A stretch of 64,000 bases of DNA. Source: a bacterium (GTDB taxonomy: Bacteria; Patescibacteriota; Saccharimonadia; CAILAD01; GCA-016700035). Positions 20,927 to 34,897 of this stretch are shown one piece after another. The stretch spans positions 65,665 through 129,664 of the forward strand of contig JADZGC010000004.1 of NCBI GenBank assembly GCA_020854115.1. Direction: 5' to 3'. Numbering within the stretch: the stretch's first letter is position 1; each line of letters starts with the position of its first letter. The position numbers and the translations under genes were made by a program. The notes under the pieces are model-generated. The model worked only from the letters and a program-made list of their open reading frames with translations. It searched no databases and was not told the DNA's origin.

Positions 20927-22454
<1,528 letters not shown>

Positions 22455-22718: not shown

Positions 22719-22976
22719 TTATGTTTTGACTTGGAACATGCTGCGGATCGCATCACCCACAGGCGTGAGAATCCAGTCCCACATACCGATCATCGTGCCG
22801 ATGCCGAGTATCACGAGGCTAGCGCCTACTAGCTTAATGAACGCCGGCGTACCAGCGGTGATATGTCGCTCGACTGATGCGATAGCTCCGGTGAAGTTAT
22901 AGACTTGCTCATGAAACTTTAGGACTAAGAATCCAATCACGATCATGCTGAGGCCAATAAAAATTTGTGTAAACAT
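22719..22976 (-). CDS. Small 2-TM membrane protein
   Basis: Two hydrophobic helices. TACAAT lies 7 nt before the ATG. Confidence 0.75.
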   Translation of the reverse strand: MFTQIFIGLSMIVIGFLVLKFHEQVYNFTGAIASVERHITAGTPAFIKLVGASLVILGIGTMIGMWDWILTPVGDAIRSMFQVKT

Positions 22977-23162
22977 ATGTGCTATTGTACGGGTATTTGA
23001 GGTGTTAGTAAAAAATGGTGCCTCTTTACGCTGAGGCTCGAACCTATTTTATCTCAAAAATGTAAGTTTGTGCTAAATTGCTGCTCCGTGCGCAAATGGA
23101 AGTCCGTAGAGCCAAATGCTACCAGCCCCGCCGCCTGCGCCAGCAGAGCTGTCGCGCGCCCA

Positions 23163-23250
23163 GCCCAGCCAGACTAACTTTTTGCATTTTTTTAGATTTC
23201 CCCCGCCAAAAAATTCTTTTTAATTTAGGAAAAAGTTAGTCTGGCTGGGC
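23163..23250. repeat. Perfect 21-bp inverted repeat; related third copy at 25411-25436
   Basis: gcccagccagactaacttttt 23163-23183 and its reverse complement at 23230-23250. Confidence 0.9.
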
Positions 23251-23452
23251 CGTTCGCCTGCCATAAATGGCAAGAGACGGCGGGGTTTCGTCCCTGCTGA
23301 CTTCTAATTTTACTTAAACCGAAAGTCCGTGTCGCGAACAAAAAATAAGGCCAGCGGCTACGCCGCTGACATATGCAGTTGTAGGCAATGGCTACATGCA
23401 TAAACTAGGAAAATAGCGCCGACTATAGCACTATATCTCAAAGCGAAAAACA

Positions 23453-24526
23453 CGTATAGAACTCAGGACCTTTGCAACATTTCAGCAGGCGTCAGTAACT
23501 GCAAGCCTAAGTGTACGCGCTTAGTGTTGTAGTAGTCGAGATACGTCGTAAGCTTATCTCGCTGGCACTTAAGCGACACACTCCTGTTCCAGTAGTAGCC
23601 AATACATTCGGTTTGGATGGTGCGGTTAAATCGCTTAATGTGAGCGTTGTCATTCGGTCGGTGCAGCCGACTGTGTCTAGTAGCAATGCCATGAGACCGC
23701 ATTACTTGCTCAAAATAGCGTCCGTACTCCGGCCCATTGTCAGCTTGTATCATAGTCACTCTAAAGCCCCAACTGTCTTGAGCTTCCAGTACAGCTTGAG
23801 CCGCTCGTCCCGGACTCAGCTTTGCCGCCAGGGTAACGTAAGCCATTCGGCTGAATAAGTCTATGACTGTGTAGTAGTACAGTCTCCTACCGCTACGGGG
23901 GTCAACATGGTGGATGGTATCCGTCTCAACTAATTCACCTGGTCTCACGGCATATGGACGATGAGGGTTATCTCGTTTGAGTCGTGGCTTCCTGGCACCA
24001 TCAAAGCAGTGATGACGCCGCAGAATACGACGCACACTGCTGAGGCTAAGTCTTACTCCAAGAGTGTTTGTTACGTAATACCAGACAATCTCAGCACAAC
24101 GCATTAACTTAGCCCGGGCAGCTAGAACGAGCCTGACTGTCGCCCCGGGAATAGCATTAGGACAAGTATGCGGCCTAGAGCTTAGTGTAGCGATTCGCCA
24201 GCTACAAGCAGTTAGCTTGTGAGCTAGGCTAACCGATCGGCTAGGCCGGTTAGGGTTGTCAAATTGGACATATCGGTTAAGCTTGTCCCATTTGCGTTTC
24301 CAGCGCCAGATGGTTGAGCGATGAACACCACACTTTCTTGCGACAACAGCCAGAGGTTGTTGGTCTTCGACCAGTAACCGCATAGCGGTTGCTCTGGCAC
24401 TAGGTAAGTTAGGGTTGATAGAATAAGCCATGGTAGGCTCCTTTCTTATTAGTTGTTGATACTAACAGTTTAGGACGCCTACCTTTTTTAGTTCAATTTA
24501 GGTTGCAAAGGTCTTGAGTTACTACG
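23453..24526 (-). mobile_element. IS481-family insertion sequence with 6-bp target site duplication
   Basis: Terminal IRs cgta..aactcaggacctttgcaac and gttgcaaaggtcttgagtt..tacg. AAAACA duplicated at 23447-23452 and 24527-24532. Confidence 0.9.
23463..24431 (-). CDS. IS481 DDE transposase; third catalytic residue appears as K (NAHIKRF)
   Basis: HTH VARKCGVHRSTIWRW, RPGELVETDT, VIDLFSR, IQADNGPEY, NDNAHIKRFNRT, YYNTKRVHLGL. Confidence 0.9.
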   Translation of the reverse strand: MAYSINPNLPSARATAMRLLVEDQQPLAVVARKCGVHRSTIWRWKRKWDKLNRYVQFDNPNRPSRSVSLAHKLTACSWRIATLSSRPHTCPNAIPGATVRLVLAARAKLMRCAEIVWYYVTNTLGVRLSLSSVRRILRRHHCFDGARKPRLKRDNPHRPYAVRPGELVETDTIHHVDPRSGRRLYYYTVIDLFSRMAYVTLAAKLSPGRAAQAVLEAQDSWGFRVTMIQADNGPEYGRYFEQVMRSHGIATRHSRLHRPNDNAHIKRFNRTIQTECIGYYWNRSVSLKCQRDKLTTYLDYYNTKRVHLGLQLLTPAEMLQRS

Positions 24527-24532
24527 AAAACA

Positions 24533-24562
24533 TTGACAAATACTATATGTTTATTATAAAAT
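24533..24562 (+). promoter_or_regulatory. Sigma70 promoter of the GC-rich gene
   Basis: TTGACA-18-TAAAAT, with AAGGAG RBS at 24600-24605. Confidence 0.65.
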
Positions 24563-24615
24563 ATACCGAGTGTTTCTCAATCCCGAGAGACTCGTACCTA
24601 AGGAGTGTGAGGCAG

Positions 24616-25236
24616 ATGCCCACAGGCTACACGTCCGACCTCTACGAGGGCAAGGATGTCGAGTTCTCTGATTTCGTCATGAAGTGCGCGAGGGCGTTCG
24701 GTGCTCTCGTTGAGCTCCGTGACGAGCCGCTCGACTCGCCTGTCCCGACGGAGTTCAAGCCGAGCAGCTACCACACGGAGCAGCTCGAGAAGGCCGAGGC
24801 GGACGTCGCTCGCATCAAAGCGTGGGACGACACCGAAGCTGACCGCCAGGCACAGCTCGCTTTCGAGCGCGCAACACATGAGTACCAAGAGTCGCAAGCT
24901 CGCGAGCTCGCGATGCGTGAGCGCTACGAGACAATGCTCGCCAAGGTTCAGGCTTGGACGCCGCCCACCCAGGAGCATCGCGAACTCAAGAACTTCATGG
25001 TCAAGCAACTAGAGAAGTCCATCGACTTCGACTGCAACACGACCTACCCGGAAGTTCCGGAGCGCCTCAGCGGTGCCGCCTACAAGGAGCAGCAACTCCA
25101 TTCGGCCCGTTGGCAGGTCTCGTACCACACCGAGCACGGTGAGGAAGAGATCAAGCGAGCCAAGGAGCGTACCGATTGGGTTCGGGCCTTGCGCCAGAGC
25201 CTCACGGAGTCCTCTGACACAACTGTCGAGGCCTGA
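24616..25236 (+). CDS. Phage-type conserved hypothetical protein (MPTGYT...CARAFGA), foreign codon usage
   Basis: RBS-supported ATG 24616. 26 of the first 34 codons after the start end in G/C. N-terminal motif recalled from phage hypotheticals. Confidence 0.8.
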   Translation: MPTGYTSDLYEGKDVEFSDFVMKCARAFGALVELRDEPLDSPVPTEFKPSSYHTEQLEKAEADVARIKAWDDTEADRQAQLAFERATHEYQESQARELAMRERYETMLAKVQAWTPPTQEHRELKNFMVKQLEKSIDFDCNTTYPEVPERLSGAAYKEQQLHSARWQVSYHTEHGEEEIKRAKERTDWVRALRQSLTESSDTTVEA

Positions 25237-25332
25237 GAGCACGAAACCCTGCACATGCAGGTCGGTAGGCAGAAAGTCTAGTAAGAGATCGTGGCAAAAC
25301 CACAATCACTGAACAACTTTCTACCTACCGTA

Positions 25333-25393
25333 TAACCCGTCCATGAAGCGTAAAACAGCCATGCTGATGAGCCGTAAAGCGGCGAAACGGTTA
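25333..25393 (+). ncRNA. Type III hammerhead ribozyme
   Basis: GUC 25339-25341, stem I CAUG/CAUG, core CUGAUGA 25364-25370, stem II GCCG-uaaag-CGGC, GAAA 25384-25387, stem III uaa(c)ccgu/acgguua. Confidence 0.85.
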
Positions 25394-25410
25394 GAAAAGT
25401 AGAATTAAAA

Positions 25411-25436
25411 CCAGCCAGACTAACTTTTTCCTAAAT
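25411..25436. repeat. 26-bp exact inverted copy of 23223-23248
   Basis: ccagccagactaactttttcctaaat, 15 nt beyond the 3' end of tRNA-Ile. Confidence 0.9.
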
Positions 25437-25451
25437 CAAAAAGTTTCTTTA

Positions 25452-25528
25452 TGGTGGGCTTGGCAGGACTCGAACCTGCGACCTCGTCATTATCAGTGAC
25501 GCGCTCTAACCAGCTGAGCTACAAGCCC
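25452..25528 (-). tRNA. tRNA-Ile(GAT)
   Basis: GGGCTTGTAGCTCAG...CGTCA-CTGATAA-TGACG...GGTTCGAGTCC...CACCA. Confidence 0.98.
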
Positions 25529-25561: not shown

Positions 25562-25638
25562 TGGTGGAGCATATCGGATTCGAACCGATGACCCCCTGCT
25601 TGCAAAGCAGGTGCTCTAGCCAGCTGAGCTAATGCCCC
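25562..25638 (-). tRNA. tRNA-Ala(TGC)
   Basis: GGGGCATTAGCTCAG...CCTGC-TTTGCAA-GCAGG...GGTTCGAATCC...CACCA. G3:U70 pair present. Confidence 0.98.
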
Positions 25639-30589: not shown

Positions 30590-33784
<3,195 letters not shown>

Positions 33785-33951
33785 TTGCGTGACATTGTGT
33801 GATGAATTCGTTCTTCATACAAGTCACAGCATGAGACGGCTAACACGCTCTTGAAGAGTGTTGTCGAAATAAGTCACGTTTGTATCTTATTCTCTATGTG
33901 TGCCAATGAGCATCGATCTGGTAGCTTTGATTTACATTGAGGAGACATCGG

Positions 33952-34150: not shown

Positions 34151-34897
34151 TGGCACAAGACCATTTAATACCTAGCCCCGCCGCCCCTTCCGTAGAATTT
34201 TAAGTAATTCTGTATGCATGTCATTATGCCTCATTGTTATATCTAAATTCGCATTCCTTAAGATGTAGGTTGAAATGGTCGTGCCTAAGACCTCGTAATT
34301 TGGATAGACGTACTTTTGCTACTCCCCAGAGGTTTTCAATGCCATTGATGTGATTCCTGGGATTAGCGTGGCTTACAAACTCATTCTCTCCATGGTTTAC
34401 CCTGAAATGTTGCTTGTAGCCCCAATCTACTAAGCCATCGTAGGCCTTCCAGCCGTTACTGTAGACCGTAGAATCACCAGTTATCCTTTCTTGTATGATC
34501 TGTTTTAGCACATCTCTGGAAGCGTTCTTTGCGACTTGGGTGTACACGCTATCCCCACGTTTTATGAGCCCAAAGACAACAATCTTCTTACCGGCTCCGC
34601 GTCCGCGTACACCACGGACTCTGCGTGGACCAAAATAGCTTTCGTCTATCATCTTTTACCACTCAGAGGGCTTGTGGCATCACAGTAACGTACAATGCAG
34701 CTATGTATGTAGGTTATGCTTCGTTAATTGCTTACAGTTTAACATTATAATGTTTGCTATCTGAATAGCTGTTAAATCCTCGTAAAAGTAACGCGCAATC
34801 TCACGATACTTCTTATCTGAAATTCGGGGACGTTTCTGGTACCGGTCGCTCATCTGTTATCTAGCATAACATTTTGGAGTTAACTGGTCTTGTACCA
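34151..34897 (-). mobile_element. IS1595-family (ISXO2-like) element, degraded
   Basis: IRs tggcacaagaccatttaa and ttaactggtcttgtacca flank a broken transposase. Confidence 0.8.
34224..34853 (-). pseudogene. IS1595 transposase pseudogene
   Basis: N-terminus MSDRYQKRPRISDKKYREIARYF is out of frame with IDESYFG...RGRGA...NHINGIENLW...LHLKECEFRYN. VYSNGW replaces the usual VYSDGW. Confidence 0.85.

Follow-up and report, generated by a model that had tools for sequence, protein, structure and literature searches.

Phage morons are self-contained units of a promoter, a gene and a transcript end, the latter provided by an intrinsic terminator, and resemble in this respect the cassette described below. 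The RiboJ insulator is a type III hammerhead that cuts the RNA of a gene free of its context; it is engineered and placed 5' of the gene. Natural bacterial hammerheads flank variable genes in prophages, where three arrays were shown to cleave and processing into gene-length mRNAs was proposed, according to the cited sections of Perreault 2011 (PMC3088659). The ligand-gated glmS ribozyme, which lies in a 5' UTR, generates a 3' product that is degraded by RNase J1, an enzyme that can dislodge a stalled polymerase; the cited sections of the source on glmS (PMC10810187) state that torpedo termination after ribozyme cleavage was not shown. Two reviews describe what hammerheads do in bacteria as largely elusive or open (PMC6765202, PMC6155905). 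No report of hammerheads in Patescibacteria was found in the open-access literature (main texts), and published alignments could hold some of the sequences. A 2026 preprint on intergenic clusters aligns a sub-threshold hammerhead cluster to RF00163, with no link to Patescibacteria seen in its cited part.

The window, which is the whole stretch of 64,000 nucleotides that was analysed, belongs to a Patescibacterium chromosome and carries a cassette with the order promoter, 5' UTR hairpin, phage-family gene, small hairpin, long helix and hammerhead. The cassette shares with the prophage clusters of the cited sections of Perreault 2011 the presence of a hammerhead next to a phage-family gene, and tandem arrays with variable genes also occur in relatives of the window genome. 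Those clusters feature several hammerheads flanking genes within a prophage, whereas here host genes surround a lone promoter-gene-ribozyme cassette with one ribozyme, one phage-family gene and no prophage. Further differences are the conserved helix just before the cut and an order in which hammerheads are frequent and Rho was not found. As with glmS, self-cleavage would leave a downstream RNA with a 5'-OH, the RNase J1 substrate of the cited sections, and RNase J is present here; in contrast to glmS the window hammerhead lies in a 3' UTR and shows no sign of gating. Taken alone, the ribozyme is an ordinary type III member and the cassette a variant of a known arrangement.

The hammerhead occupies positions 25333-25393 of the + strand, with predicted cleavage after C25341. 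The 5' strand of stem III (25333-25340), whose 3' strand ends at 25393, leads to the GUC with C17 at 25341 (U16 H17 are 25340-25341), followed on the same strand by stem I (25342-25363), CUGAUGA (25364-25370), stem II (25371-25383) and GAAA (25384-25387). Stems I and II are closed and stem III is open, the type III topology. All positions of the type III core are present (C3 U4 G5 A6 N7 G8 A9, G12 A13 A14 A15 and U16 H17, as defined in Perreault 2011), and the core-adjacent pairs 1.1-2.1, 10.1-11.1 and 15.1-16.1 are C-G, G-C and A-U, invariant in 3/3 homologues. The Rfam model RF00008 (Hammerhead_3) matches 25334-25393 over 54/54 model positions with 34.9 bits (E 1.2e-4 in 8.3 kb; 2.8e-6 per genome). 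A strict hammerhead descriptor has three matches in the 790-kb genome versus none in each of 8 Markov-simulated genomes, and RF00008 picks the same three hammerheads. Compared with the model, stem I of the window copy carries a bulge of 2 nt plus an extension of 2 bp, and loop II measures 5 nt; as to a loop I-loop II tertiary contact, all three homologues show by eye a purine-A bulge in stem I and a loop II of 5 nt with AG at its end. Changes on both sides of a pair affect two pairs of stem III, two of the six of stem I and one of stem II. Stem III is the weak part, with one C-U pair in the window copy that is A-U in both homologous cassettes. The exact active fold has a weight of 0.5% in a folding model that leaves out tertiary contacts, and the predicted folding penalty ranks 78/141 among related hammerheads, a mid-field value typical of the family. 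An earlier note had called a type III hammerhead with an intact core at this place and proposed a check with Rfam models. The call is borne out by the full-length RF00008 match, the descriptor and the covariation; the Rfam check agrees in the length of the match, but the score falls short of the gathering threshold (48.5), at which the Rfam search calls no hammerhead here. Judged from its sequence, the element is a real new type III member for which site-specific cleavage is predicted.

The remaining parts of the cassette precede the hammerhead on the + strand. A sigma-70-type promoter (24533-24562) with 11/12 consensus matches is followed by a 5' UTR (24567-24615) with a hairpin and a Shine-Dalgarno sequence (24600-24605); both have similar counterparts in the two homologous cassettes, L052 and L080. 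The cargo gene (24616-25236) codes for a 206-aa protein of phrog_8905, in line with the earlier note, which took the gene to be foreign and added that bacterial hammerheads often lie near phage or mobile genes. Its GC content of 0.61 (0.78 at GC3) compares with about 0.49 for the genome, and its relatives are found in 50 phage records, all under 60% identity. The protein model is confident (pLDDT 89) and all-helical, with no PDB match at E 0.001 or better, and the cassette DNA has no match among GenBank phages. No terminator-like site was found at 24600-25460 on either strand. Note that a divergent promoter-like site on the - strand (24553-24580, 11/12) overlaps the cassette promoter and points into the transposase gene of the adjacent insertion sequence (IS), in the direction where related arrays have a TrmB gene.

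Part of the cassette is present in five RNA runs, which were found with the cassette stretch and two of which share a study with possible source runs. In four of them, from three studies, RNA contigs begin at 24587, 24591, 24593 and 24598, about 20-30 nt past the predicted start, and none of the RNA contigs of these four runs lies on the IS. These starts hint weakly at use of the cassette promoter; the evidence consists of contigs, which cannot show transcript ends, and in no run is an end seen at 25341. Since it was the cassette that led to these runs, the lack of RNA contigs on neighbouring genes does not count as evidence.

The cargo gene was found in 4/301 genomes of the class and in 0/59 others of the order. 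Locus searches with the single cargo protein gave no homologue loci, and an alignment-based search gave 22 metagenome and 6 viral loci. Only 2/32 non-self homologue loci carry the whole cassette: the metagenome locus L052, with a cargo protein of 54% aa identity, and L080 from another order of the class. The hammerhead is absent by descriptor in the other 30 loci, of which 6 have at most 108 nt of downstream sequence. L052 is tail-to-tail with an FAD-oxidase gene and L080 with a tRNA-Pro gene, such that all three cassette copies face a convergent gene, different each time. In same-genus G002 about 100 bp separate a small upstream gene from tRNA-Ile, versus about 2.46 kb here; the region was not found in G001. 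These comparisons of sequences show that the ribozyme is part of a mobile one-gene cassette that moves as a unit, and its insertion target here is likely the tRNA-Ile(GAT) gene (25452-25528, - strand), convergent with the cassette. As separate observations, a core motif is matched some 480 nt downstream in the viral locus L075, uncalled by the descriptor, and in G142 (L081/L083) two distant copies of the cargo gene stand in tandem between tRNA genes, with no hammerhead by descriptor.

The stop codon of the cargo gene is followed by a small hairpin (25248-25261, + strand), kept in all three cassettes, and, 27 nt past the codon, by the start of a long helix with an inner hairpin (25263-25330, + strand). 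The helix is delimited by fold prediction and covariation: 14/16 pairs are formed between 25263-25278 and 25315-25330, and in the three homologues four pairs are altered on both sides and two on one side. A 37-pair structure of the whole 3' module has 95.5% of its cells paired across the three sequences and 9 pairs altered on both sides, a level reached by 0/500 shuffles, with slid controls at 29-50%. It was drawn from the same three sequences and so supports the structure rather than being an independent test of it.

Hammerheads are widespread in the order. RF00008 matches 33/61 genomes at E 0.05 or better, with a copy above the gathering cut-off in 7/61; at 1e-5 it matches 29/59 other genomes of the order, often more than once per genome, versus 8/150 genomes of an even sample of the phylum and 0/14 controls, for which 35 candidates were scored per genome compared with 77 in the order. 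Rho was found in 0/60 genomes of the order, 41 of which are at least 90% complete. One 23-nt hammerhead motif is estimated to be present in 520 stretches of the genome collection, and the 126 loci listed comprise 100 from Patescibacteria, 12 with other labels and 14 without label. A set of 145 distinct hammerheads was assembled from L001-L050, 80 of the 126 loci, L052, L079 and L080; each test excluded the ones whose flanks were short, hence the denominators 137, 135 and 101. These loci come from related genomes and were found with one motif, so they are not independent, and their counts describe a pattern rather than test for significance; a shuffle count of 4/137, the mean of three shuffles, is not comparable with them and was not used.

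The pattern is asymmetric. A same-strand ORF of at least 90 aa ends at most 130 nt upstream of 88/137 hammerheads, versus 36/137 for convergent ORFs and 11.5% for random positions. The 45 nt upstream have a median folding energy of -10.0 kcal/mol versus -5.1 downstream, being stabler in 108/137, and GC is higher upstream in 120/137. A promoter motif is found upstream on the same strand in 53/101; the remaining three orientations have 18, 10 and 5, and random positions 6%. Downstream of 135 hammerheads there are 34 same-strand genes with a ribosome-binding site, 28 convergent ORFs and 2 convergent tRNAs, with no neighbour recognised for 75. The 34 and the 75 indicate that standing in for a terminator is not the only use of related hammerheads.

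The reading that best accommodates the phage-family gene, the promoter, the lack of a terminator call and this family context is one of the two put forward in the earlier note, mRNA 3'-end formation for the foreign gene: the hammerhead probably cuts the nascent RNA constitutively after 25341, as predicted from its core, and thereby makes a protected 3' end for the cassette mRNA. The promoter would yield a one-gene transcript, in which the long helix would fold before the ribozyme is transcribed and hold 25317-25330 away from stem III. The ribozyme would then fold and cut after 25341. The message would end in a 14-pair helix followed by about 11 nt with a 2',3'-cyclic phosphate, and would resist PNPase, which is present in the genome together with RNase J; RNase E/G and RNase R/II were not found in it. 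The downstream piece, antisense to tRNA-Ile and bearing a 5'-OH, would be degraded, probably by RNase J, which the hairpin of stem I could slow at the freshly made 5' end. As a portable device, probably taken from phage operons, the unit would replace a terminator. The context is simple: a single promoter, gene and ribozyme, no terminator call and three covarying natural variants.

A bolder extension, which we regard as conceivable but doubtful, is an analogy with the torpedo termination of eukaryotes. In this Rho-less order a helix or pseudoknot combined with a hammerhead would cut the nascent RNA of accessory genes, cap the message against PNPase and hand RNase J a 5' end from which to chase off RNA polymerase, and the module would punctuate swappable multi-gene arrays. 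Torpedo termination is the bold case and not the best-supported one. With hammerheads in about half of the genomes of the order and Rho not found there, both 3'-end formation and the torpedo idea are directly testable.

The preferred reading of mRNA 3'-end formation is weakened by the C-U mismatch in stem III, the low weight of the exact active fold and the score under the gathering cut-off, and it has to be weighed against an unlikely alternative, in which the ribozyme arrived within a phage-derived block and is now slow or decayed, this copy cutting weakly or its cutting no longer mattering. Such a relic would fit the C-U mismatch, at a position where both homologues pair, and it agrees with the counter-evidence to full cleavage provided by RNA contig X11 (24942-25421, depth 5.5). 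The latter crosses the predicted site by 80 nt and therefore implies uncut RNA, antisense RNA or DNA in that library. In a DNA contig from another study, a deletion at a 9-nt repeat has also removed the promoter together with the first 37 codons while the ribozyme is kept, and hairpin-plus-type III units are found between genes in 3/12 viral loci of the subtype pattern (assigned by eye). Of the other viral loci, 8 have a GAAA segment before the pattern, which is another permutation, and 1 looks like chance. Decay is however difficult to reconcile with an intact core, with compensatory changes in stems I and II, with a folding penalty typical of the family and with the presence of the cassette in RNA libraries. 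The three viral contigs (L220, L229 and L230) are laid out like the bacterial cassettes, with the hairpin and type III hammerhead flanked by genes of one orientation.

It is decidedly improbable that the main job of the ribozyme is to keep read-through RNA off the convergent tRNA-Ile, or off another gene, instead of finishing the cassette mRNA. The earlier note had offered this antisense shielding next to 3'-end formation, and the tail-to-tail position of the three cassette copies relative to tRNA-Ile, tRNA-Pro and the FAD-oxidase gene, with no terminator-like site between the cassette gene and the tRNA, keeps a part of it. In the family, however, the 2/135 hammerheads facing a tRNA and 28/135 facing a convergent ORF leave room for a local benefit at most. 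Cutting alone would also leave an antisense piece and require a nuclease, and the conserved structure is part of the mRNA upstream of the cut.

Constitutive cleavage, as assumed for 3'-end formation, was likewise set against a gated ribozyme, in which 25317-25331 would compete with the ribozyme for stem III and turn cleavage off. The earlier note had seen this segment pair with 25387-25399, predicted a poor stem I in the competing fold and suggested conformational gating. The pairing exists as sequence and dominates the fold of an RNA trimmed to begin at 25317 (P 0.51); when the native 3' UTR (25237-25410) is folded its P is 7e-5. The competitor disappears there because 25263-25278 pairs with 25315-25330: the span considered in the earlier note started 54 nt too late and omitted 25263-25277. 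The upstream helix is 9 kcal/mol stronger (-18.4 vs -9.4 kcal/mol), is complete before stem III is transcribed, and has a P of about 1.0 once position 25332 is made, which stays at 1.0 at the seven chain lengths tried. Stem I is retained in both folds (P about 0.7-0.85) and is thus not poor in either. A gated ribozyme has, in its native transcript, two mutually exclusive folds that are close in energy, and an alternative pairing conserved in homologues; here the competitor reaches a P of only 0.009 in L052 and 0.001 in L080 in full context, and it is the helix sequestering the segment that is conserved. The trimmed L052 RNA also mispairs, and the upstream partner resembles the 3' strand of the ribozyme, such that two states could arise were 25263-25277 blocked, but the trimmed L080 RNA lacks the competitor (0.011). 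According to these fold models the proposed switch is a truncation artefact, and gating is very improbable.

That the ribozyme makes an RNA intermediate (a circle or a template for reverse transcription) that moves the cassette is least probable of all: the cassette is found at unrelated sites in distant genomes and relatives have genes bracketed by two hammerheads, but the mobile unit includes the promoter and the ribozyme half past the cut, neither of which the cleaved RNA carries, the tandem hammerheads bounding a unit-length RNA and the ligase of retrozymes contrast with a single ribozyme and 0 matches to RtcB in this genome (99.5% complete), and the cited sections of Perreault 2011 report no circular or spliced products (PMC3088659).

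The arrangement of hammerheads varies among relatives. In several, a promoter that diverges from a TrmB gene precedes arrays of genes and hammerheads, in which AAA_28, exonuclease, cytidylate kinase and CYTH genes occur. A TrmB-like gene is found within 1.4 kb upstream of 14/101 and downstream of 2/101 related hammerheads; none adjoins the window cassette. Arrays of gene-spacer-hammerhead units with one promoter are seen at L031:9884-13370, L033:2478-4033, L035:4318-6901 and L037:7304-9485, and their spacers look by eye like compact H-type pseudoknots with covarying stems. In the window genome itself, the two other type III hammerheads (G000:C12:50687-50741 and G000:C13:9291-9345) each follow a promoter, a GC-rich ORF and a hairpin with a TrmB-like gene nearby, the second one being followed by CYTH-like and P-loop genes. 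In L001, L002, L004, L006, L010 and L022 a seemingly orthologous hammerhead is preceded by a promoter, then a short ORF that varies and finally some hundreds of nt with no long ORF; this long spacer may hold another RNA.

The cassette is located within an 8.1-kb interval between the 16S (20927-22454) and 23S (30591-33785) genes. Several protein genes lie in this interval too, as do tRNA-Ala(TGC) (25562-25638, - strand) and tRNA-Ile, both on the opposite strand; G002 is arranged alike on the 16S side. DNA contigs from two other studies span the IS-cassette and cassette-tRNA junctions, and the locus is therefore not a misassembly. The deleted form mentioned above (run X10, depth 14.5) joins 22866 to 24728 and has also lost the IS. 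The latter (23460-24520, - strand), which we take to be IS481-like, has 19-nt inverted ends and codes for an HTH and rve transposase (23463-24431); it is absent beside the homologous cassettes of L052 and L080. The IS and the cassette are bracketed by a palindromic element (23156-23257), whose right arm (23209-23248) is repeated inverted at 25411-25450, a half copy that abuts the 3' end of tRNA-Ile. A genome-wide repeat was considered for this flank and ruled out, the element having no copies in the genome beyond these two places. The 23S match exceeds the model in length by about 270 nt and includes a 206-nt insertion near 30870, and an IS1595-type transposase ORF (34224-34652, - strand) is found directly past the 5S gene.
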